Origin: a virus
Taxonomy: Duplodnaviria > Caudoviricetes
IMG/VR virus record: IMGVR_UViG_3300038314_000939
Coordinates: 1 to 25,781 of that record
DNA: 25,781 nt
Reading direction: 5' to 3' (one strand)
Shown here in pieces: positions 3,957-24,525 of the stretch. Under the pieces are notes generated by a model. The model did no database searches and was not told the DNA's origin. It saw only the letters and a list, made by a program, of their open reading frames with translations. How positions within the stretch are numbered: the first letter of the stretch is position 1; the number at the start of each line of letters is the position of its first letter. Position numbers and translations under genes: made by a program.

Positions 3957-5471
3957 TTACCAAGTATAGTTATTATTTCTATTAGTGATCTTGCCCCCCC
4001 CTGGTGAATAATCCTCATAATAATGATAGGTATATTCATCAGTAGTTGGAGCCTTGTTCTTTAAAGCGTTTGAAAGCACTGCATTATTAAATACCTGCAT
4101 TAACTCTAAAGCTTTCTCGACATTCCCCTTTCTTCTTTCTATCATCGAGCCAATATAGTATTGGAACACATTAGTAAAAGGGATTGGTGTAGTATCAGAA
4201 GCCTCTGTTAATCTTGTAAGTTCTTTAAAGAATCTTATATATACGGGCCAGCCATCGTAATCAGAATTTACTGGAACCTCAAACTTCATGTTCTCTTGAT
4301 CTATGGCATACTTTCTAGGTAACGCCGGTGTCACCCCTTGCCATACTGGGGTGTCCACTAAATTCTGCGCTGTAATTGACCCTGCACCTGCCGCAGGTAT
4401 CCCCGCAAACGTAGTTGAGTTCGTCTTACTTGTATAAGTGAGCGTATCACCACCCAAGTACAATGTTCCAGCGTCATCAAATATCAAAGTGGAATCTACC
4501 ACCAAAGTCGTGTCTCCGATCTCTGCCTGTGTCGCTACCAGGGTTTTAGCCTGACTAGTCTGTAAATCAACATAGTCATCTAAACTCATTCTCATCGCTG
4601 GCGTCTTGTCTCCTATCGAAACAGATATAATACTTCTATCTGAATTAGGGTATTTCATGCTAATCGCTGCCAAGCTATAGCTATTCTCGTTAGTGCTTAA
4701 AGTTATATTAGTTTTATCGCTAGAAACCTCAAAGTCCCAATCCATTTGCATATATTCTCCACTCGTAGGGTCCTGATATACGAATTGTGAGATAGCTGAC
4801 TGTGCGTCGTTTGCCCATTCTACACACATTTCTCTCGTAATTACGTTGCTAATCCTACTACCGGTTATCCGTAAAGCTTGATTAATAAAGTTCTCAACAG
4901 AATTATAAACCAAACCAGCAGCAGCAACGTAGTCACTCGCATCACTAGTCGTGGTCCCATCGGTGAATTTGACATAATAATAAGCATAAGATGTATCAGT
5001 AGTAGCCTGGAGCGTATATTCAGTATAAGGTCTGTCCCACTGGACCATTTGAGCGTCAGCCAATTGTCGACCAGAAGCTGTCTTTGCGTCAATGGACTCT
5101 ATAATGGTTCCTGCTCCACCGTCAGTTGCAGCCCCGTATATAGTTATTCCTCTCTCGTTGATCTTCGTAACTTTGGCATCCAATTCGTGGTCAAAGGAGA
5201 AGTGATTAGTAACAGCTATTGTTGATCCCCTTGTAACAGCGTCATCCCCTACTGTTGTTTCAGTTTGATTATCCCCGATTGAACCAACAACCATCCAATC
5301 CGCATTAGCGAACCCGTCGTTATCTAGTACCGTTATAGACTCTGCTGCCGCTAATGCGGGCGCAGCTAAAGTAGTACTTATATTCCCAGATATATCCGGG
5401 TGAGCGATACGAAGGGTGCTTCCTGTAATGTTTATGATTTTTGGCTTTTGTAAAACTTGACTAGTTGCCAT
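3957..5471 (-). CDS. Head-tail adaptor (P22 gp4 / T7 gp11-like role) with extra beta-rich domains
   Basis: 504 aa. Adaptor-like helical core (FINQALRITG...EWANDAQSAISQ...WDF...SYSL...PRKYAI...TPIPFTNVFQYY). Lies just upstream of the nozzle gene. Confidence 0.6.
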   Translation of the reverse strand: MATSQVLQKPKIINITGSTLRIAHPDISGNISTTLAAPALAAAESITVLDNDGFANADWMVVGSIGDNQTETTVGDDAVTRGSTIAVTNHFSFDHELDAKVTKINERGITIYGAATDGGAGTIIESIDAKTASGRQLADAQMVQWDRPYTEYTLQATTDTSYAYYYVKFTDGTTTSDASDYVAAAGLVYNSVENFINQALRITGSRISNVITREMCVEWANDAQSAISQFVYQDPTSGEYMQMDWDFEVSSDKTNITLSTNENSYSLAAISMKYPNSDRSIISVSIGDKTPAMRMSLDDYVDLQTSQAKTLVATQAEIGDTTLVVDSTLIFDDAGTLYLGGDTLTYTSKTNSTTFAGIPAAGAGSITAQNLVDTPVWQGVTPALPRKYAIDQENMKFEVPVNSDYDGWPVYIRFFKELTRLTEASDTTPIPFTNVFQYYIGSMIERRKGNVEKALELMQVFNNAVLSNALKNKAPTTDEYTYHYYEDYSPGGGKITNRNNNYTW

Positions 5472-10867: not shown

Positions 10868-11359
10868 TTAATTTGTTAATAAATACTGAATAGCTGCGGC
10901 TATTACATTGGTGTCGTCGCCAAAACTTCTTATTGCAGTGTTGCATTTAGCGCATAACAAACCTCTTATCCTTCCCGTGTCATGACAATGGTCGACTGCC
11001 AAATGCTTTAATACGCCTTTTCTTGTAGCCGTCTCTGGATTTTTACAAATAGCACATAATCCCTCCTGCTTACCCCACAACTGATGATAGTCCTCCAGGG
11101 TCATATTAAACTTATGCCTTAAGTTGCCATCTTTTTGAAGAGCTACCCACTCCTCGTTACTTAAAGCTCTCTTTAACTTCTCCCTAGACCTCCTTGAGTA
11201 TTCACGCCACTTATCCTTATTTCTACTCCTCCACGACGAAGCCCTGTCAGCATGGCACTCTTTGCATTCGCCATACAGGGTGCCGCCAGAATGCCTATAG
11301 TATCCCTCTGCTGCCTTTTCTTCTTCACACTTTGTGCAAACCCTGGTTGTAATAGTCAT
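10868..11359 (-). CDS. Free-standing endonuclease VII-family (His-Me finger) nuclease, probable homing endonuclease
   Basis: MTLEDYHQLWGKQEGLCAIC...LAVDHCHDTGRIRGLLCAKCN motif and N-terminal CxxC..CxxC. Start revised to ATG 11359 (163 aa), which removes the overlap with the upstream gene. Confidence 0.9.
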   Translation of the reverse strand: MTITTRVCTKCEEEKAAEGYYRHSGGTLYGECKECHADRASSWRSRNKDKWREYSRRSREKLKRALSNEEWVALQKDGNLRHKFNMTLEDYHQLWGKQEGLCAICKNPETATRKGVLKHLAVDHCHDTGRIRGLLCAKCNTAIRSFGDDTNVIAAAIQYLLTN

Positions 11360-11372
11360 AATAATTAGGTTA

Positions 11373-12746
11373 TCAAAACATGCGCTTTGCGTATAATGCG
11401 TAGTCGTGATCGTTATTACCACCCGCTGTAACCGTCTTAACTCTGACGTACTTAAATGGTATTGGCGTATCGGCTATTGCAAAGAAATCAGTATCAACCC
11501 AACTAGCTACTCCAAACAAAGCCTGCGTAACATCCTGATAAGCACAACTTGCTGCCGCAGTACCGTCGTCTTGATTAGTCGCCTCAATTGTTATAGTTAA
11601 AGTGTCAGTAGGTGTTCCATCAGAAGTTTCTGCCTGAATAGAGAAATACCTGTAGCCGTCCATATCTATGTAATAATGATTAGTTCCGCTTGTCTCGTTC
11701 GTTACGTCAGCCAAGGTTTCTTCTACATGGTGATCTGAAATCGGATTAACCTCGAACCCCTTGAATGAGTCTGTTCCCGAATCGTAAGCTGGCTGCTCCG
11801 AACCATCCTCATTAACAGCCATTACATACTGAACGCCACTTAATGAAGCTGCTGGCCTCACTGCATCCCCTTCTGCTACACTATTAGGTAAAGCAGAATC
11901 ATCAAAATTTTTGGCTTCTGCCATTACTTGAGGCCCTGTAGCGATTACCGCTGAATCATGAGTCGCGTCTAGGGCTGCACCTCCACCACTCACTGCTACA
12001 GTAGCTACAGCCATTGTATTATAAGTACAGGTGTCAGAAGTACCAGCAGTCGCTTTTCGATAAAGAATCGTACCGGCTCTATAGTTAATGGCAAACTCAC
12101 CATCTGCCAATCCGTTTATAAATTCTTGTGCATCTTTCTCCTCATTATACTCAACCTCTGTTGTCAAAACAGTTCCTGTTCCCCATACGAATGAACTTTC
12201 ATTTGAATAAATTTCTATTCGCCTTATGGCCGTATGGTCAAAACTTCCCAACGTCCCTACCCAGTCTTGATCAGCCATTGCAGCCGTATCGTAAATGTCA
12301 AAAGTGTAAGCATTACTAGAGGCCGCCACCAATTTGATCCAGCCATACAGTACATTACCCCCGTCGTCTATTGCCTTCAAAATGTACCTTGCTGAAGCCG
12401 CAGTTGGAGTCTCGAACATTAACTCCAGATTATTAGCGGTATCTGTAATTACCGCTTCGGCTGACCCTGCTGTTTCAACTAGTGCCCCAATAAGGTCTGT
12501 GTCACTAACCGTATAAACCAGATTCGCCTGTTTATCCCAATAAGAACCAACCTTGTCTCCGTTTAAGTTCAAAATAGGAGCCTTGTCGGTTGAAACCACA
12601 CCTCTACCACTTTGAGCAGCTGCACAGGTGAAGGTTATAGTTTCGGCAGCAACCGCCACCCTGTCACTCGATTGAGTAACATCATCAACAGGCAAAGGCA
12701 ACTGTGCGCTGATCTCCTTTCCGCCTGGTCTTGTTAAATAGTTCAT
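11373..12746 (-). CDS. Acidic beta-rich virion structural protein
   Basis: 457 aa. C-terminal jelly-roll-like segment (YRYFSIQ...TIEATNQD...PFKYVRVK). Located in the structural module. Confidence 0.6.
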   Translation of the reverse strand: MNYLTRPGGKEISAQLPLPVDDVTQSSDRVAVAAETITFTCAAAQSGRGVVSTDKAPILNLNGDKVGSYWDKQANLVYTVSDTDLIGALVETAGSAEAVITDTANNLELMFETPTAASARYILKAIDDGGNVLYGWIKLVAASSNAYTFDIYDTAAMADQDWVGTLGSFDHTAIRRIEIYSNESSFVWGTGTVLTTEVEYNEEKDAQEFINGLADGEFAINYRAGTILYRKATAGTSDTCTYNTMAVATVAVSGGGAALDATHDSAVIATGPQVMAEAKNFDDSALPNSVAEGDAVRPAASLSGVQYVMAVNEDGSEQPAYDSGTDSFKGFEVNPISDHHVEETLADVTNETSGTNHYYIDMDGYRYFSIQAETSDGTPTDTLTITIEATNQDDGTAAASCAYQDVTQALFGVASWVDTDFFAIADTPIPFKYVRVKTVTAGGNNDHDYALYAKRMF

Positions 12747-12876: not shown

Positions 12877-13146
12877 TTAAACATCATAAGTCACTCCATC
12901 CGAAGTTCGGAGAGTTTTTCGCCCCCCATTGTCAGTCACGATTCCGCTAACCTTTTGCCCCACAACGTTACATGTAACGAGTTCGGGTTCAGGTGCTTTT
13001 TCAGTAACCTCTTCAGCTTCTTCAGTCACAGTTTCCTCCACCTCTTCAGGTGCAGTCTCCTCCACCTCTTCAGGTGCAGTTTCCTCCACCTCTTCAGGTG
13101 CAGTCTCCTCGACCTCTTCGACTTCTTCTTTTTTCCTTCTAGGCAT
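12877..13146 (-). CDS. Small acidic repeat protein (EEVEETAP)n with short C-terminal beta domain
   Basis: 89 aa, ATG start with an AT-rich leader, same strand as its neighbours. Confidence 0.8.
   Translation of the reverse strand: MPRRKKEEVEEVEETAPEEVEETAPEEVEETAPEEVEETVTEEAEEVTEKAPEPELVTCNVVGQKVSGIVTDNGGRKTLRTSDGVTYDV
13029..13119. repeat. 24-bp coding tandem repeat, about 3.8 copies
   Basis: Unit cagt(t/c)tcctccacctcttcaggtg starts at 13029, 13053 and 13077, with a partial copy at 13101. Confidence 0.95.
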
Positions 13147-14411: not shown

Positions 14412-15425
14412 TCATGCTCCAGCACCCGTGCTCCATAGCAATCCTCTTGGGGAAACTGTCGCTATACCGTATGCACACCTAGTGCCGTACGTCCAGTTAT
14501 CATTATGGAAGTCCTCACCGTTATTACCAGGCGCAGGTGTTTTTAACATTGGACGTTCCCAGATACCAAGATAAGCTTGCCATCCCATTTGGCCTTGTCC
14601 AGCTGCTACAAGTCCCCAATAGTCTTTCTTGGCAGAATTGTAAGCTCCAGCTGCGTCAGTAGCCAAATAAGGTAAAGCTAAATGTCTATACTTACCTTTG
14701 TATACATTAATAACCCCAGGGTTGTTTTGATCTACGTCAGTTGTAGATTGTAAAAATTGTTTTACGTTATTAACAACAGTTGGATCGTCAGTAGTAACGA
14801 TAGTATTAAAATCCATAATACGTCTCTCTCCAAATTGAGAGAAAATCTGTGTGTTTCCTTGCAATTCAGCAACCTCTAGTCCTCCTTTTGAGAAGATAGG
14901 ATTTCCAGTAATTACATTCGAGAATGTAGTACTAGATCCGTTAAGAGTATGTGAAGCTGATACAAGAGCCAAAGTATCACCTACAGTAGTAGCAACAGTT
15001 TGACCGTCCATGTCTGTGTAAGAAGTAGCAGTACAGAATGTTAATCTATGAGTTAGATCAATCTCCATCCTTTGTGGACAGAAATGTGTAAGAGAAGTGA
15101 TCTTAGCCATGATCTCAGGTTTCTTGTTGTACCTTCTCATTTCCCAAGTGATATCAATTTCCCTTGCGAAACGTCTAGCAACCATATCCTTCTCATAACC
15201 TCTGTAAACTTCAGCCTTACTTGCGTCTACCCCTTCCTCTTTGACCGCAGCGAATGTTTCAGGGTCAATCTCTGTATACCTTCTGGTATCCCCAGTATTA
15301 GCCGGCATATCTTCAGTAATAAAAAGCTGTGACGCTAGTCCAAGCTCTTTAAACTTGTTGTGTACTGACCAATTACGATTAATCACATCTGTAAACTGCG
15401 ATATTGTAACTATGTTTAAGTCCAT
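14412..15425 (-). CDS. Major capsid protein (HK97 fold inferred)
   Basis: 337 aa. E-loop-like FAAVKEEGVDA...FAREIDITWEMRR, DGQT..GDTLALVSASH and a terminal YGTRCAYGIATVSPRGLLWSTG. Position downstream of scaffold and cement genes. Confidence 0.85.
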   Translation of the reverse strand: MDLNIVTISQFTDVINRNWSVHNKFKELGLASQLFITEDMPANTGDTRRYTEIDPETFAAVKEEGVDASKAEVYRGYEKDMVARRFAREIDITWEMRRYNKKPEIMAKITSLTHFCPQRMEIDLTHRLTFCTATSYTDMDGQTVATTVGDTLALVSASHTLNGSSTTFSNVITGNPIFSKGGLEVAELQGNTQIFSQFGERRIMDFNTIVTTDDPTVVNNVKQFLQSTTDVDQNNPGVINVYKGKYRHLALPYLATDAAGAYNSAKKDYWGLVAAGQGQMGWQAYLGIWERPMLKTPAPGNNGEDFHNDNWTYGTRCAYGIATVSPRGLLWSTGAGA

Positions 15426-17296: not shown

Positions 17297-17908
17297 TTAA
17301 TCTTTTTTAGGCGATTCCATAACTATCCCCAGTTCTTTTGCTAACGCCTTCCCGTCATCGGTATCAGCGAAATTAGTTTTCTTTTTTGAATACCCCCGCC
17401 CTTCAGCTGAAGGAACATAAGAATTCAAAGGATCAACCTGATTCTCTCTATTTTTACGATTTTCGATAAGTACGAATGCGTCATCTAACTGATTAGCAAC
17501 TGCATCAGGCGTTAAAGCGTTATCACCTAGTATCTTGTACTGCTTTTCCAACTCTTTTCTTAACTCCTTGTCCTCACCCACTAATTGTCTAATCTTACGC
17601 TCCTTAACAGATCCAACAACAGCCTCCGACAGCCTTTCGTTCTGATTATGCAGCGTCTCAACCTCTTGCATATAGAACTTCTTTTCTTCGCTCCAGTTGG
17701 CCATCTCCGCTTCTCGATCAGCTTGGTTTAAAGTTTTGAATCTTTTAAAATTCATATCTTTACTCTCAAGTTTCTCAAGCGCTTTTTCCTTCTCATCAAG
17801 CTGCCCCTGGATCTCTTCCAGTTTATCAGCTTTCTCCTTTAACTCCTTTGCTGCTTCCGGGGACAACACCCCCTCAACGGGATTCCCGTCTTCGTCATAA
17901 TACGACAT
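17297..17908 (-). CDS. Capsid scaffolding protein (putative)
   Basis: 203 aa coiled-coil with a C-terminal DDGKALAKELGI helix. Lies between portal and capsid genes. Confidence 0.65.
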   Translation of the reverse strand: MSYYDEDGNPVEGVLSPEAAKELKEKADKLEEIQGQLDEKEKALEKLESKDMNFKRFKTLNQADREAEMANWSEEKKFYMQEVETLHNQNERLSEAVVGSVKERKIRQLVGEDKELRKELEKQYKILGDNALTPDAVANQLDDAFVLIENRKNRENQVDPLNSYVPSAEGRGYSKKKTNFADTDDGKALAKELGIVMESPKKD

Positions 17909-17918
17909 ACACTTTTAA

Positions 17919-18335
17919 TTAAGTTATAATTGGTGGCAAACGGTCGTTATTCTCCCCTTTGCCGTATCTTTTATTAGAATTTAGTTCCACTTCAACCCCT
18001 CCTGGCAGAATCAAGGAGTTTGCTTTCTTCTCTTTTTCCGTAATTGTTCGCATAATCGGGCTATCCTCATCGGACAGGTCTATATACAATTCCGGCTGAC
18101 TAGCTTCATCTGTCCCGTATTGGTTTATATAAGCCTCGTAATTGCCTGCACATGCTGGGCACATTCTTATATCCCCTCTACGTGACCCACTTGTCTGCAT
18201 CTGCATCCCTGTATTCCCGCAATCATCACATTTTCTATGTTTAGATATATAAGGAGTGCCATTTATTGACCCGAATTGAGAGATAGGTATCCCCCCTTTC
18301 TCTAGTGCAGCTTTTTTAGCCTTCTTCTTTTTCAT
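17919..18335 (-). CDS. Hypothetical Zn-finger protein (138 aa)
   Basis: CDDCGNTG...CPAC and a basic N-terminus. Confidence 0.7.
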   Translation of the reverse strand: MKKKKAKKAALEKGGIPISQFGSINGTPYISKHRKCDDCGNTGMQMQTSGSRRGDIRMCPACAGNYEAYINQYGTDEASQPELYIDLSDEDSPIMRTITEKEKKANSLILPGGVEVELNSNKRYGKGENNDRLPPIIT

Positions 18336-18339
18336 AAAT

Positions 18340-18696
18340 TTAAGTTACAGAATATTTATCAAACTCGACCTCCAAATTAGGAGCAAGCGAACCATAAGAC
18401 TCAAGTCTCTCCTTTAATAAACTCACTCCATTAATAGTAAACCTATCATGAATCATGTTCTCTTCTTCTGTATGAAGAATCATCTCCTCCTTAATATCCT
18501 CAACTAGTTCATCTAAAATGAAATTCAAGGCACTATTCTTACTTAGAGACTGCGCCTCCATATAAAAGGAGTCCTGTTCAGTCTTCCCCTGTGGATGTTC
18601 AGGTTTATTAAAAACACCCAGCTGCTTGCGGGTCATTTTGCAAATATCTACCCTCCCCCACTTAAAATACAATTTTTCTATCAATCTTTTGAACAT
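18340..18696 (-). CDS. Small helical protein following portal (118 aa)
   Basis: ATG 34 nt after the portal stop. Ends EVEFDKYSVT. Confidence 0.8.
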   Translation of the reverse strand: MFKRLIEKLYFKWGRVDICKMTRKQLGVFNKPEHPQGKTEQDSFYMEAQSLSKNSALNFILDELVEDIKEEMILHTEEENMIHDRFTINGVSLLKERLESYGSLAPNLEVEFDKYSVT

Positions 18697-18730
18697 TTTT
18701 AACGAAGAGTTAACGTGCCACGAACACGAC

Positions 18731-20716
18731 TTAAGCTGTAAGCAATTGGCTTACAGAGTTTTTAGGACTAGGTGGTGCTAACTGATTCTGTAAATCAGTC
18801 TGCCCTGTAGCTTCTGGTGGTAACACCTGTAATTGTTGTTGTTGTTGTGCTGGCCAAATCTTACGAGGATCTTCACCCTGTAAAATAGCCTGCCTTTCAG
18901 CTAGATAATCAATATTAGGTATCTTACCTAACGGCACGAACATTGCTAATAATTTCTGTATATACTCATCAAATTGCGCTAATTTCAAACTAGAAGTATT
19001 CTTCTCTGTCGGATTAATCTCTATACTCCAGTGATAATCTATCGCCCTTAACTCTTGTGGATCCAGGTAAACCTTACTAACAGGCCTACCTCTAACAGCC
19101 TCCAAGATCTCTTCTTCAGCTAATATCTGTTCACCTGTAGGAAACGGGCCTTCTCTGAAGTCAACTATCTTCTCACCCGTCCTACCGTCCTCGAACTCTG
19201 AATCAATTGACTCTGTCCTATATACGTTAACCATCGCTTCAACACCTTCTTTAGTAGTCTCTACTCTTTTATCAATCGGTTCAGTCCAATATTTCAATAT
19301 ATTATACAACCTAAGCTTCGCTAACCTTTTCTCTAAATTAATTACCCCTAGTATAGTTATTCCTAATTTAAGCATCGACTGCTGTTTAGATTCGATAATC
19401 TCCCTGGCCGTCTGCTGTCCCGTAACGCTCTGCCCCTCCAAAACAGGGGATACCGATTTACTGTCAATTATCCTCTTAATAAATTCAGTAGCATTATACT
19501 CTGAAGGTGTTACCCCGATATTATTCCCGATCTCCTGTAATTTATCCGGATTAACACCATTGTGGATCGTACCTGGATAAAAAATCTTCTTACTCAACGT
19601 CTTACCAGTATTATTAGCCATCGGCGGCTGATAACTCTTCCTTGTCTTTAATATAATAGCCTTCAACATCTCATCAAAAATCTGTTGATCAACCTTCGTT
19701 TTCGCAGGGATACTTTTAGAATAAGCGAAAAACTGACTAATAGGCTCAATATCACCTTTAGCTAAAGGATATTCACATACACCCAGTAAAGAAGATAAGG
19801 GGAACGTACCTAGCACGCCTTTCTTACTCCTCTTAACAGGGAACATAGGAACACCATTTAACAAGATCATGAAATCGTTGCTCCACTTATTATAATATTT
19901 AACCTCCTCAACCATACCATCCTCCAACGGTTCAAGTGACCATCTATTATAGCTCAACCCATCCTCGCTATCACCAGCTATCTTCGTAACCTTTCTAGGC
20001 ACGTTCTCCCATCTTCCCCATTTTCCGTACTTACTTTGAGCTTCAGCCCTTGTTAATAACTTCCTTACCGCTACATACGGCTGTTTCTCTAAATCGAACT
20101 CTCTTATATTCCCTAAATATACATTCAAATTATTAATCAAACTCGCTGAACAATACTTGTAAACCTTATCAACACCCTCCTTCCAATCAAAATCACTAAA
20201 CTTCCCGTCGATCATCTCGAAATCTTTAGCTATCTTATTAGGTAATCTAAACTCAACCTGCGTATCCTCAACAAAAACTGTCCCCTGACTTAGCAACTCA
20301 TGGTAAATTAGAACCTTCTTAACATCATACTCAGGACTCTCTATCTTTCTACTCTTCTTAATCAAATCCTGCATCGTTAACCCTAACTCATAAACTTCCA
20401 CATTATCCTGATCAAATCCCTTAATAATCGGCTCTAAATTAAAATTTATCAAAGAACTCAAAACCGTGTTCCCTTTCTCCTTAGTAGTCCCTGTAGTCGT
20501 CCTGACATCAAACTCATTTATCTTCGGCGGAATATAAGAATTAGCCGCCTTAGCATTACTCTCCCAGTACTCACTAAAAGTCTGATCATCAAATTCAGCA
20601 TGACTGTTTTCCCTTTGTGTCCGCGCTTTTTCCAGCTCCCTTAGTATTTTACTCCGAAAATACAACTCATCTTCCGACAAGTTGGGAGCCTCGACATCAT
20701 GTTTGTCATTTTGCAT
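18731..20716 (-). CDS. Portal protein (P22-like size)
   Basis: 661 aa directly after terL. Portal-like segments (HELLSQGTVF, IIDSKSVSPVLEGQ..GQQTAREI...QQS) and a Gln/Pro-rich C-tail. Confidence 0.85.
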   Translation of the reverse strand: MQNDKHDVEAPNLSEDELYFRSKILRELEKARTQRENSHAEFDDQTFSEYWESNAKAANSYIPPKINEFDVRTTTGTTKEKGNTVLSSLINFNLEPIIKGFDQDNVEVYELGLTMQDLIKKSRKIESPEYDVKKVLIYHELLSQGTVFVEDTQVEFRLPNKIAKDFEMIDGKFSDFDWKEGVDKVYKYCSASLINNLNVYLGNIREFDLEKQPYVAVRKLLTRAEAQSKYGKWGRWENVPRKVTKIAGDSEDGLSYNRWSLEPLEDGMVEEVKYYNKWSNDFMILLNGVPMFPVKRSKKGVLGTFPLSSLLGVCEYPLAKGDIEPISQFFAYSKSIPAKTKVDQQIFDEMLKAIILKTRKSYQPPMANNTGKTLSKKIFYPGTIHNGVNPDKLQEIGNNIGVTPSEYNATEFIKRIIDSKSVSPVLEGQSVTGQQTAREIIESKQQSMLKLGITILGVINLEKRLAKLRLYNILKYWTEPIDKRVETTKEGVEAMVNVYRTESIDSEFEDGRTGEKIVDFREGPFPTGEQILAEEEILEAVRGRPVSKVYLDPQELRAIDYHWSIEINPTEKNTSSLKLAQFDEYIQKLLAMFVPLGKIPNIDYLAERQAILQGEDPRKIWPAQQQQQLQVLPPEATGQTDLQNQLAPPSPKNSVSQLLTA

Positions 20717-20724
20717 CGCCCCCT

Positions 20725-20753
20725 ATTATACCTCAAAAACTAGCAAATAGCAA
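20725..20753 (-). promoter_or_regulatory. Sigma70-type promoter for portal, near-leaderless
   Basis: TTGCTA (20753-48), 17-nt spacer, TATAAT (20730-25), then 8 nt to the ATG. Confidence 0.7.
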
Positions 20754-20772
20754 ACTTGTCAAATTCGTCACT
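20740..20772 (-). pseudogene. Relic copy of the terL 3' end (SDEFDKFAIC*)
   Basis: AGT GAC GAA TTT GAC AAG TTT GCT ATT TGC TAG versus terL AGC GAG CCG TTT GAC AAG TTC TCT ATT TGT TAA (20840-20808). Confidence 0.8.
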
Positions 20773-20807
20773 CTTCACTACTTAATAAACACCAGGGCGT
20801 CAAGTAT

Positions 20808-23438
20808 TTAACAAATAGAGAACTTGTCAAACGGCTCGCTGTTGCCCTCTTTCGCCCCTTCTGTGTATTCACCATCTATTTCAGTAAATGTCAACATAGC
20901 GGCATCTGCGATGTCAGGACTAACTATGCCACTTCTACGCATTTCGTCTTTTGACATAATTTGTATCCGTCCTCTTAAATTTCTTTTAAACTTTATATCT
21001 AATAATTGTCGCCATCCCTCGTCCTCTACTAGCGCTCCCCCTTTTTTACACCACTCCTTTAGCCCGAAGAAAGCTTCAGCTCTCAAATTGCCGTACCTTT
21101 CTTTATCATCAGGTGGATCACCCACGTTCACACCGTTAACACCCACCCCAGCTAGAGCTAGTTCTTGGCTTACGTTAGCCCCTATCCCAAAATTATCAAC
21201 AAACACATCGTCTCCGTTCAAATGATACAATTCCATTAGAGTTAGAGTTTTCTGCGCGATACTCTTATTGGTACTTTTCTTCTCTTTAGCTACCACTCTA
21301 GCTTTAAATTTATCTCTTAAAACCCAGATCGTCTCATTTGTCCCCTCGCCAGACGGGTCTACCCCTAACCTCTTAGGCCCTCTACTAAAGGCAGCATCAA
21401 CCGTATACCTCAAATCATTCTCAACCATCAAAGGCACGTACCCCTTCTGATCTATCGCGTCCTCACTTGGGAAATTACCACTTACCCTTATATTATGCTC
21501 ATCCGAGTCCTCCCCATGCTTATCAATTATCCTGTTAACAAATTTTATATCTACTATAGGAGATTCAGCTGAATCAAAATGTAAACATTGCCAACTATGC
21601 TTATCTGAATGATGCGAATCATAAAAATATCCACTAGTCCTAGTAGGATTACCTATAAGGATAACAAGAATATTCTCTTCAGTTAAGGCACCTTCAGCTA
21701 CATTAAAAATCTCATTAGGCACACCAGAATTGCCCGACCACATACAATAACCGTTTCTTCTAGTATAAATAAGTCCACTTGGTACAGTCACGCAATAAAC
21801 CATATTATCATAATCTATTGTAGCAAGGGGAGCCCGACTCCTTCCAAGAGTGTATTGAAAAGCCTGGGTACTTAATTTCACCATATGGAACTCACTTGGC
21901 GGACTAGCCGAAATAACATATCCATCCCTCGTACTTGTAGCCCAATGGTCAATTATCCAATGCTTTTGCCCTTTCAGGCTCCGTTTCTTTAAAGTAGTTC
22001 TATACCCAGCTAGCAAACACAACTCATGTAAATCATTAGCTAACCCCTCTCCAGATGTATACAAAACCATAGTCTTTTTTTTCATATACCCATCCCCGTC
22101 CATAAAGGCTTTTAGAAAGACATCTATTTGAACAGGAGGTAAACTCATAACATATCGGGGAACCCTCTTACTAGCAAAGCCAACTCCATACCTTGCCAAG
22201 TAAATACCTAGCTGAATACCTGATATAATAAACCCCTTCTCGTTTACTGAAAAAGACACACCCATACGCTCCAACAACCCCTGGATCTTCACTCTATTCT
22301 TAGGAATCCTTTGACTTATACCAACTCCATTATACCTCATCTTCCCATTCTTTAGCTTTCTTTTCACTAAGTGCCCTTCAGAAATATACCACCCAAGAAA
22401 TTCCAACCAATCATCCATCTTGAAAACTTGACCTTCTTTCTTGCCCCTCTTAGACTTAAAAGCTGGCAACCTAAACTCAGCCCTCTCTTCCCCCTGCCAA
22501 TTAATACATGGATTTGCAATCATATCCGACTTAATATCTTTAGGCTTTATCTTCTTGTACCCAGCCTTGACTGTCCTAAGCCACATATCATGATTTGGGG
22601 TAATACAAAAATCCGCCCCCCTAGTAACCGTAGGAACATACATCTTCCCCTCATAGGGCATCATTATTCTTCTCTCAACCTTCTCATACTTAGACTCCCC
22701 TGACTCATCCATAACCAAGACCTCTTCGTCCTTCTCCAAGTCCTTAAAGAACTTCCATCCTTGACGGGTTAGTACTTCTGTGGCATAATCATGACATGCT
22801 TCATCAACGATGAACATGACATGCTCGCCGTGCATACCTGCCAGGGCCTCTGGACTTTCCTTCCTGGCCGTCCTCGCACGCGCAAACCATGTCGCCGGAC
22901 TCTCCTTCATCCTTATATAACTTGTCGTCCACTCATACTGTCCTTTAATATGCGGTGGCATCTTCTCCATCCATTTAGCTATCTCTTTCCACAATACATC
23001 GTACATCTGCTCTGCGCCGGGTGCAGTACATGGGATCTGAGCGTCTAAAAAAGAAAAAAGGTACCAAAGTATCAACATGGCAAGAGAAGCGCTCTTACCG
23101 CAACCGTGGCCCGATCTGACCGTTATCCTCTGTTTCGCTTTTCCGCACAGTGCTTTTCCAACAGCTTCCATTAACTCTGTCTGATGATTAGTTATGTGCC
23201 TTCCCTTCTGGAATTTTTCCCCTTCCGCTACCGGTGTTAAGCCCCACATATCCATTATGAAAAGTAAGGGACTACGCTGATAATCATATAACCTATAAAC
23301 ATTATCAGAAATATCCTTCTCCTTCTTCAATTTCCGATACTTCGCTGTATCTTTCCTCAAATCTTTTGGGATCTCTATCCTTTCAATTTTTTTCTTTTTA
23401 ACCTCTTTCTTTTTAGCCCCTTTTAACTTTTTAGTCAT
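20808..23438 (-). CDS. terL: Terminase large subunit precursor containing an intein (876 aa; 520 aa after splicing)
   Basis: Walker A VRSGHGCGKS, Walker B MFIVDEA|SG, motif III IGNPTR, RNase H-like nuclease motifs LGVDPS, FVDNFGIG and SPDIADA. Confidence 0.95.
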   Translation of the reverse strand: MTKKLKGAKKKEVKKKKIERIEIPKDLRKDTAKYRKLKKEKDISDNVYRLYDYQRSPLLFIMDMWGLTPVAEGEKFQKGRHITNHQTELMEAVGKALCGKAKQRITVRSGHGCGKSASLAMLILWYLFSFLDAQIPCTAPGAEQMYDVLWKEIAKWMEKMPPHIKGQYEWTTSYIRMKESPATWFARARTARKESPEALAGMHGEHVMFIVDEACHDYATEVLTRQGWKFFKDLEKDEEVLVMDESGESKYEKVERRIMMPYEGKMYVPTVTRGADFCITPNHDMWLRTVKAGYKKIKPKDIKSDMIANPCINWQGEERAEFRLPAFKSKRGKKEGQVFKMDDWLEFLGWYISEGHLVKRKLKNGKMRYNGVGISQRIPKNRVKIQGLLERMGVSFSVNEKGFIISGIQLGIYLARYGVGFASKRVPRYVMSLPPVQIDVFLKAFMDGDGYMKKKTMVLYTSGEGLANDLHELCLLAGYRTTLKKRSLKGQKHWIIDHWATSTRDGYVISASPPSEFHMVKLSTQAFQYTLGRSRAPLATIDYDNMVYCVTVPSGLIYTRRNGYCMWSGNSGVPNEIFNVAEGALTEENILVILIGNPTRTSGYFYDSHHSDKHSWQCLHFDSAESPIVDIKFVNRIIDKHGEDSDEHNIRVSGNFPSEDAIDQKGYVPLMVENDLRYTVDAAFSRGPKRLGVDPSGEGTNETIWVLRDKFKARVVAKEKKSTNKSIAQKTLTLMELYHLNGDDVFVDNFGIGANVSQELALAGVGVNGVNVGDPPDDKERYGNLRAEAFFGLKEWCKKGGALVEDEGWRQLLDIKFKRNLRGRIQIMSKDEMRRSGIVSPDIADAAMLTFTEIDGEYTEGAKEGNSEPFDKFSIC
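21729..22796 (-). mobile_element. Intein with LAGLIDADG homing endonuclease (356 aa, residues 215-570)
   Basis: Starts CHDYATEVLT. Block B ITPNH, LAGLIDADG helices FLGWYISEG and FLKAFMDGDG, block F VYCVTV. Ends WSGN followed by Ser+1. Confidence 0.95.
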
Positions 23439-23962
23439 ATTTTTCTTTTATGTTTTACACTGGCCCAGTACTCCCTAGAATGCAGCCCCGCATGATCAGA
23501 ATTAGACATAACTTCAAGATTCTCTAACCTATTATCAGTCTTAATTCCGTTCCTATGGTGTACGACCTCGCTTCTACCAAGCTTTCGCCTCAACACCCTC
23601 TCCATGATATTGCGATGCAGCCTGCCGCTACCCTCTCTTTTATACCCCCCGCTATCCAGTTGCCCTCTTTTTAAAGGGACGCTGCCATATAACTTACGCC
23701 TACAACCCTTGCAAGATGAATACAGCCCGTCAACCTTTTGCCTATCCTTGTGGAATTCCGTCTTCAGCTTGATCTTCTTACACTTCTTGCACCTCTTATA
23801 TTCATCGCTCAACCGCTCCTTGTGATTTATACGACCAGTTCTTAAGCCCCACAAATGCTGACACCTTTTACAGGAAGAATACAGGTTATCCTTTTTACTC
23901 ATATCCCTTGTGAACATACTTGTGGCAAGAGACTCCTTGCATTTACTGCACACCTTCGCCAT
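23435..23962 (-). CDS. HNH homing endonuclease with two N-terminal Zn-ribbon repeats
   Basis: LHRNIME..L.RKL...EVVHHRNGIKTDNRLENL, with two CxxC-x22-CxxC units. ATGA overlap with terL. Confidence 0.92.
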   Translation of the reverse strand: MAKVCSKCKESLATSMFTRDMSKKDNLYSSCKRCQHLWGLRTGRINHKERLSDEYKRCKKCKKIKLKTEFHKDRQKVDGLYSSCKGCRRKLYGSVPLKRGQLDSGGYKREGSGRLHRNIMERVLRRKLGRSEVVHHRNGIKTDNRLENLEVMSNSDHAGLHSREYWASVKHKRKI

Positions 23963-24200
23963 TCTTGTCGGGGTTATACCGCTGCAATAAGACGGGAAAT
24001 AGCTCCCAGAGCCTTCTTTCTTTTATGAAAGGCTCCCTGCGAGACTTCTTCTCGTGTAAAGAATTGTGACACATGCGACATAAAAAAACAAGGTTTCTTT
24101 CGTCATTTAAGTTAGGATGCTTCCTAGCCTCACTACGGTAAACCAAATGATGCCTGTCCACTGCTGTCCCACCACATCTTTCACATTCTGTCCAGCTCAT
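23943..24200 (-). CDS. Small HNH endonuclease
   Basis: CERC...DRHHLVYRS...NLVFLCRMCHNSLH. Confidence 0.88.
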   Translation of the reverse strand: MSWTECERCGGTAVDRHHLVYRSEARKHPNLNDERNLVFLCRMCHNSLHEKKSRREPFIKERRLWELFPVLLQRYNPDKNGEGVQ

Positions 24201-24525
24201 GTAAACTTATTATTATTCGCTCATTACTACTCTTATACTTCGTCGCCTTTACACTCACCACATACTTGTCATTCTCTATCACCCCCCCCTCCTCCAACGC
24301 ATCTAACACCGGCTTAATTAAATTGTCCACGTCCGTTGTAGCAAAATGCTTAATATGAAATTCTAACTCAATATTACACCACTTAACCTTACCCTTACCC
24401 TTTACCAACCATCCCATCTCCTCCCTCCACTTCTTATACCTAGGCGTTTTAAACTTCCTCCCACACCAAGCCTGGTTTATTGTTATCGGCCTTATCGGCA
24501 CCACAAGAGTTTTAGAGTTCGTCAT
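24181..24525 (-). CDS. rusA: RusA-family Holliday junction resolvase
   Basis: PITIN, YKKW, DVDNLIKPVLDAL..GGVIENDKYV motifs. Confidence 0.9.
   Translation of the reverse strand: MTNSKTLVVPIRPITINQAWCGRKFKTPRYKKWREEMGWLVKGKGKVKWCNIELEFHIKHFATTDVDNLIKPVLDALEEGGVIENDKYVVSVKATKYKSSNERIIISLHELDRM

Follow-up and report, generated by a model that had tools for sequence, protein, structure and literature searches.

A C-terminal tail shared by the large terminase and a small post-portal protein in a podovirus-like phage locus: a possible mimic of terminase docking on the portal

In the virus record IMGVR_UViG_3300038314_000939, a 25.8-kb stretch that is called here the window and whose long open reading frames (ORFs) lie on the minus strand, the large terminase (TerL) and a 118-aa protein encoded directly after the portal protein were found to end in the same short peptide. 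Across homologous loci, the two C-terminal tails co-vary from phage to phage; therefore, the small protein likely occupies the docking site of the packaging motor on the portal. The explanation preferred here, which draws on sequence comparison and is given a probability of about 0.5, is that one co-varying peptide binds one portal site and that the small protein would hold this site during prohead assembly until TerL displaces it. On this view, the small protein is an assembly factor that associates with the portal by means of the docking code of the terminase; docking tails are known, and a copy on a second phage protein appears to be new. A full-text literature search, beyond whose reach most subscription papers lay, found no description of a phage protein copying the tail of its own terminase.

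Distribution and covariation of the tail

TerL (876 aa, 20808..23438; all window coordinates are on the minus strand) was identified by its match to phrog_2, terminase large subunit (E 2.9e-26), and ends EPFDKFSIC. The 118-aa protein (18340..18696) ends VEFDKYSVT, and a frame in the gap between the terL and portal genes ends VVKSDEFDKFAIC, each followed directly by the stop codon. The three ends were thus as described in the earlier note, with F at -7 from the stop in all of them. The low-structure stretch said to precede the tail was also seen in the predicted model of the small protein, where residues 104-118 lie outside any helix. The TerL tail FDKFSIC (20808..20831 with its stop), a likely portal-docking peptide, is conserved across five TerL classes, and the tail FDKYSVT of the small protein (18340..18363) is its copy.

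Homologous loci were collected by a portal-alignment search, from which the best 80 of 148 viral and the best 80 of 280 metagenomic loci were kept. The retrieved loci contained 119 distinct portals and were reduced to 105 loci at 90% identity, with portal homologues mostly 32-60% identical to that of the window. When 31 of 99 candidate upstream large genes were sampled, 30 matched terminase-named PHROGs. To rebuild the small-protein family, the last 12 residues were left off; this yielded 92 matches among 1,178 ORFs, nearly all directly 3' of the portal gene, with 73 representatives at 50% clustering. A strict tail pattern, [FY][DN][KRP]xx[IVLFM]x(0-4) followed by the stop, and a loose pattern were both composed after the tails had been seen.

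The earlier note had asked whether homologues of the 118-aa protein retain the motif, and they do: all five close homologues end in VEFDK(Y/H)(S/A)(I/V), and among 78 wider homologues the motif was found in 60 by a loose core pattern and in 33 by the strict pattern. The strict pattern ended 42 of 91 TerLs, 41 of 82 small proteins, none of 97 portals and 1 of 621 other ORFs, the last being truncated by a contig end directly upstream of a portal. In the same sets, the loose pattern ended 59 TerLs, 57 small proteins, 1 portal and 29 other ORFs. By chance, 0.3% of C-termini would be expected to carry the strict pattern, which occurred 58 times in 106,745 internal residues. The common form of the tail is F-D-[K/R/P]-x-x-hydrophobic-hydrophobic-COOH. 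A further clade outside the small-family profile (L041, L049, L123, L126 and L129) has a small protein that ends (N/D)PH(A/E)HI, and its TerLs end FNKFAHI in L049 and FNPHAHI in L129, which fits the shared-tail pattern.

A TerL-tail profile, trained on loci below 60% portal identity with small proteins excluded, was run on all genes of ten genomes and the window. It placed the small protein in one of the top two ranks of all genes in 10 of these 11 genomes (third in G001) and TerL likewise in 10 (23rd in G009, where the tail is extended). In 9 of the 11, TerL and the small protein had the top two scores, and the third score was at least 4 bits below the second. Because of these ranks across whole genomes, it can be concluded that the motif belongs to TerL and the small protein. 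A genome-wide docking tag was rejected, as the motif did not occur on three or more unrelated proteins per genome.

Covariation of the two C-termini, the other check set by the earlier note, was found in shuffled, clustered and neighbour-swap tests. The last seven residues of the two proteins from one locus had a mean BLOSUM62 score of 11.7, versus 5.5 +/- 0.75 for shuffled pairs (n=70, p=1e-4), and no covariation was detected in the linker control at residues -17 to -11. Among 47 canonical-register pairs, the scores were 17.6 and 13.7, respectively, and positions -4, -2 and -1 co-varied individually. The covariation persisted after collapse to 49, 40 and 21 portal clusters (p<=0.001). When tails were exchanged in 35 disjoint nearest-neighbour swaps, the own partner was better in 25, worse in 7 and tied in 3 (p=0.001). 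Single loci illustrate the pairing of TerL and small protein: FDPNDPL with FDPNNPL in L035, FDRYDPI with FDKYEPI in L034, FDRFDL with FDKHNL in L025, where both tails are one residue short, and SPFNEI with SPLSEL in L078.

Partner of the tails and proposed role of the small protein

The 661-aa gene at 18731..20716 very likely encodes a portal protein of podovirus type, as judged from its position and a predicted structure. The AlphaFold model has a pLDDT (predicted local distance difference test) of 83, and its Atlas neighbours at 0.97 carry P22_portal, SU10_portal or Head-tail_con. The portal of the window gave no direct Pfam, PHROG or PDB sequence match; its homologue in L073 matches PF12236 at E 1e-5, below the cut-off. 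From the secondary structure of the model, a stem-clip-stem order is predicted, with the clip at about residues 363-403.

The portal homologues pair with TerLs of five BLAST classes, and on a portal tree of 87 rows the TerL class switches 24 times. Judged from these sequences, terminase exchange on this portal family is frequent and the tail is retained. The similarity of TerL tails followed that of the portals (partial r 0.36) versus 0.05 for the TerL body. With the major capsid protein taken into account, tails still correlated with the portal (0.49 for TerL, n=47; 0.38 for the small protein, n=43), and with the portal taken into account, correlation with the capsid protein was negative (-0.18 for TerL and -0.06 for the small protein). 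The capsid protein was therefore rejected as the partner of the tails. A sliding-window scan of the portal against the tails had peaks over the conserved helices 117-128, 336-350, 363-374, 453-467 and 516-524 and localised no single site. Prediction of a complex between two copies of portal residues 41-480 and the small protein returned a score of 0.00, that is, "no answer", and counts neither way.

The small protein is predicted to consist of helices 2-13, 18-26, 38-53, 55-75 and 78-103 followed by a coil tail (model pLDDT 90), that is, a cationic amphipathic N-terminal helix, a helical hairpin core and a free C-terminal tail. In 78 sequences, G90 does not vary and R85 hardly does, and the distance from G90 to the C-terminus is 26-36 residues in 125 sequences. 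This near-fixed distance suggests that core and tail may engage one target together. The criterion for an N-terminal cationic amphipathic helix was satisfied by 39 of 82 small proteins versus 28 of 624 other ORFs. One may speculate, with a low expectation of being right, that this helix tethers the portal to the inner membrane in about half of the family, a task in which T4 gp40 assists. No Pfam or PHROG family was common to two of the 78 members, and a fold search with the model returned only generic helical hairpins, the best at Z 7.1, a level common for such folds. Identity of the 118-aa protein with a head-tail adaptor was rejected, since none of the 78 members matched an adaptor family and a separate family, represented by a 504-aa protein in the window, has the SU10 adaptor domain.

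A common groove on the portal, at the clip or between protomers, probably binds both tails. The earlier note had proposed a portal-docking mimic that acts as an assembly chaperone or packaging-timing checkpoint. Retention of the motif, covariation of the C-termini and the tracking of the portal by the tails agree with the docking part of this proposal; the chaperone or checkpoint step is one that we infer. The small protein would cap or organise the portal ring during prohead assembly and keep the motor off unfinished heads, and TerL would then displace it from the shared portal site. Action as such a placeholder before packaging is considered the likeliest role, at roughly even odds and with less assurance than the common groove. 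Action before packaging is favoured because the gene lies between the portal gene and that of the likely scaffold and because the adaptor is a separate gene. More tentatively, and with odds somewhat below even, the family could represent a widespread podophage head-assembly factor: a self-encoded terminase mimic that plugs the portal groove with a co-evolving copy of the TerL tail, whose amphipathic helix in many members keeps the nascent head at the membrane and whose exchange for TerL is the checkpoint that licenses packaging.

Weighing of the alternatives

Several observations count against the preferred explanation. The evidence is wholly comparative, members are known from uncultured phages only, and the data do not date the moment at which the small protein binds within the assembly pathway. 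Only about half of each set fits the strict pattern; the loose core covers 71 of 91 TerLs and 68 of 82 small proteins but also 8 of 97 portals. About ten loci lack the shared tail. In the clade of L068, L070, L077, L079 and L082, TerL ends xFF (xSFF or xAFF) and the post-portal protein, a weak homologue at best (hhalign probability 9% on four of the five), has no matching tail, and in L072, L074, L076 and L080 a related tail is retained on TerL but absent from the small protein. Whole clades are without the amphipathic helix. TerL (bbp25, L197:10137-11738) of phage BPP-1 ends YDPYARM and neither of the two post-portal genes has such a tail; TerL (gp2, L198:640-2115) of phage epsilon15 ends EYDPWK and its post-portal gene is likewise without one. 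In BPP-1, therefore, a TerL with a tail of this kind functions with no mimic present, and the TerL motif is wider than the mimic. The Mantel correlations are modest (0.18-0.49), short proteins giving noisy distances, and the contrast between portal and TerL body is weakened because TerL-body similarity saturates between classes. Finally, the core of the small protein correlates with the TerL tail (r 0.17) within the range of 75-residue portal windows (0.14-0.29). The xFF clade may be regarded as a natural negative control.

It is conceivable, if rather unlikely, that the small protein uses the same portal site at another time, either filling, during packaging, the sites that a pentameric motor leaves unoccupied on the 12-fold ring or displacing TerL at termination, handing the head to the adaptor and possibly staying in the virion. 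The conservation and covariation results fit this equally well. The 5:12 mismatch at the clip is established, according to the available text of PMC10359639 and PMC9958956, and P22 gp4 is described in the accessible part of PMC5290284 as binding both portal forms and is proposed to help displace the terminase. What speaks for action before packaging instead is positional only: the small gene sits with the portal and scaffold genes, away from the neck genes, and an SU10-type adaptor without the motif is encoded separately.

The small protein could also be the receptor of TerL, that is, a terminase adaptor and not a competitor, with its hairpin on the portal and a groove in which its own tail, or that of a neighbour, lies as a pseudo-ligand that the TerL tail displaces. 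A tail that folds back would be consistent with the constant spacing between G90 and the C-terminus and with the fairly high confidence of the monomer model over the coil tail (pLDDT of 90 and 77 for the last two blocks). However, given the portal, the TerL tail had no significant residual link to the body of the small protein (partial r 0.04, p=0.27, and 0.09, p=0.07), whereas given the small body it kept one to the portal (0.20 and 0.18, p<=0.002). Moreover, TerL tails of model phages bind the portal directly, as far as the available text of PMC5290284 describes. This explanation is improbable, and it is disfavoured rather than refuted because the length-matched portal windows span the correlation of the small core with the TerL tail.

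Less plausibly still, the shared target could be the capsid shell around the vertex, a host factor (a chaperone or protease) or a defence sensor, with the small protein serving as a decoy for the sensor. Hydrophobic C-termini that lie free look much like protease tags. Binding of TerL tails to hexons around the portal has been speculated upon in PMC12407722, in the part of that source available. Such a target does not explain why the tails follow the portal and not the capsid protein; furthermore, whole genomes carry the tail on these two proteins only, unlike a general tag, and clade-specific tail variants follow the portal across TerL swaps.

As to a cause at the level of DNA, the end of the gap frame (20740..20781) and the end of terL form a direct repeat of 23 nt, with 87% identity and a spacing of 68 nt, that heads the list of 11 repeat families in 18200-21000; the tail of the small protein lies outside it. 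The gap frame lies in another frame of the 91-nt terL-portal gap, is likely untranslated and occurs in 1 of 54 gaps. A promoter-like site, TTGCTA-17-TATAAT (20725..20753; a consensus match only, 10/12), has its -35 box within it. In L088, whose portal is 79% identical, an upstream frame ends IDRFAIC at the same distance from TATAAT and the portal ATG, with the equivalent arrangement TTGCAA-17-TATAAT; in both loci, the F-A-I codons contain the -35 of the promoter-like site. In the last eight codons there are four differences, three of them silent. Most simply, the gap frame would be a relic of an earlier terL 3' end, left after local duplication or gene exchange and kept for its promoter. The earlier note had counted it as a third example of the tail; it appears instead to be a strain-specific old terL end overlapping a promoter-like site, and its presence in a single gap also led to rejection of a conserved micropeptide.

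That the motif itself arose in this way, as a promoter -35 box (TTGACA inside TTT GAC A) or by recurrent copying of the terL end, is very improbable and largely refuted: TTGACA is contained in the TerL tail and the relic of the window, both overlapped by promoter-like sites, and own-locus tails share codons slightly more often (106/170, 62%) than cross-locus tails (54%), but TTGACA occurs in only 4 of 55 TerL and 4 of 49 small-protein FD tails, Asp is mostly encoded by GAT (37/55 and 41/49, respectively), the linkers upstream of the tails do not co-vary, and the idea explains the relic and not the family pattern. A promoter origin was accordingly rejected on the rarity of TTGACA and the prevalence of GAT. 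The tail codons vary synonymously, and the tail is kept at the protein level.

Relation to known systems and other genes of the window

Binding of TerL C-termini to portals or proheads is described for T3 gp19, lambda gpA, SPP1 gp2 and P22 gp2 in the available text of PMC13595956 and PMC5290284, and deletion of residues 483-499 of P22 TerL is stated in the latter to abolish portal binding. Docking tails of TerL and tail-binding adaptors are also dealt with in the accessible portions of PMC12407722, PMC10359639 and PMC7617512. Like the TerL tails of these four phages, as described there, the tail found here is short, both charged and hydrophobic, and forms the extreme C-terminus past the nuclease domain; unlike that of P22, which the available text of PMC5290284 gives as basic and Pro-rich, it is acidic-aromatic. 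The available text of these accounts names no second phage protein with a copy of the terminase tail. A synthetic hexapeptide analogue for T3 is named in the title of a work cited by PMC13595956.

Like P22 gp4 and the Oshimavirus and SU10 adaptors, the 118-aa protein is a small helical protein with a C-terminal tail. In the Oshimavirus adaptor, the last hydrophobic residue and the carboxylate sit in clip clefts, according to the available text of PMC12407722. The present case is unlike those adaptors in that another gene, of 450-520 aa and lacking the motif, encodes the SU10-type adaptor and the small protein lies between portal and scaffold.

In T4, gp40 helps to bind the portal to the membrane, and the motor gains access to the clip only once release has taken place, as given in the available text of PMC9958956. 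The T4 protein, 114 aa long, works on the portal ahead of packaging according to that text, and it offers the nearest functional model for placeholder action of the small protein. Homology to gp40 was rejected (hhalign probability 0.3%), and the C-termini of T4 gp40 and gp17 do not resemble each other, unlike the tail pair described here.

Small uncharacterised genes directly after the portal gene and ahead of the scaffold or protease gene are also found in cultured podophages: phiEco32 gp9, PaP3 orf5, epsilon15 gp5 and BPP-1 bbp19/bbp20. By eye, phiEco32 gp9 and PaP3 orf5 resemble the hairpin core; single-sequence profile matches to these podophage genes were at noise level (best 5.0 bits, with 4.7 for the unrelated T4 gp40), and none of the products bears the tail of its own TerL. 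Through the tails of BPP-1 and epsilon15, cultured phages may allow the TerL half of the code to be tested.

A paucity of atomic structures of portal-terminase complexes is stated in the available text of a 2026 review (PMC13595956), and the cited accounts, in the text available, give no explanation of what keeps the motor off immature heads. The seven-residue motif on TerL and the 118-aa protein provides a small handle on this interface: a peptide, a natural competitor and about 70 co-varying pairs. It may also account for how terminases of five sequence classes swap on one portal family with only the tail kept; on the more tentative checkpoint reading, the tail would also be a portable handle that lets unrelated terminases swap onto one portal. 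The motif further gives a likely role to a hypothetical gene that is conserved in a large group of uncultured phages.

Relatives of the locus were sought in several collections. GenBank phages held no relative of the portal or of one small-protein homologue, the prokaryote genome collection held none, and the PDB sequence search found none of the portal profile or the small-protein profile. No RNA holder was listed among the RNA runs. A degenerate DNA search of viral contigs for the tail of the window returned a near-identical phage and two chance antisense matches inside another gene.

The head module of the window is podovirus-like. Downstream of the small gene, a 203-aa coiled-coil-like protein without the tail motif (17297..17908) is, from its position and composition, a likely scaffolding protein; homologues were found in 9 of 10 genomes, and all 8 ends inspected lack the tail motif. 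The major capsid protein (337 aa, 14412..15425), which served as the control partner, was identified by its match to an annotated major capsid protein (E 2e-4) and has homologues in 10 of 10 genomes. The 504-aa protein (3957..5471) belongs to the head-tail adaptor family through SU10_adaptor matches in its homologues: 4 of 9 members are above the Pfam cut-off and a fifth matches at E 6e-4, and the protein of the window itself has no match. The C-termini of this family lack the tail motif. Its members have 450-520 aa, and the SU10 adaptor match covers only the C-terminal part, with about 270-300 extra residues before it.

TerL of the window contains an intein of about 356 aa directly after Walker B (about 21729-22796, the ends being judged from sequence), recognised by LAGLIDADG_3 and a weak Intein_splicing match. 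In the near-identical phage L002 this intein recurs in a form that is 14 residues shorter, and several related TerLs of 800-1,100 aa probably bear one too. Two HNH genes and a RusA-like gene lie just upstream of terL (23435-24525), and no obvious small terminase was seen among the ORFs scanned. A weak zinc-ribbon match was obtained for a 138-aa protein (17919-18335; homologue in 1 of 10 genomes) whose gene lies between the small gene and that of the likely scaffold. Elsewhere, an endonuclease VII-type gene lies inside the structural module (10868-11422), and an acidic 89-aa protein (12877-13146) has a repeated EETAPEEV unit.

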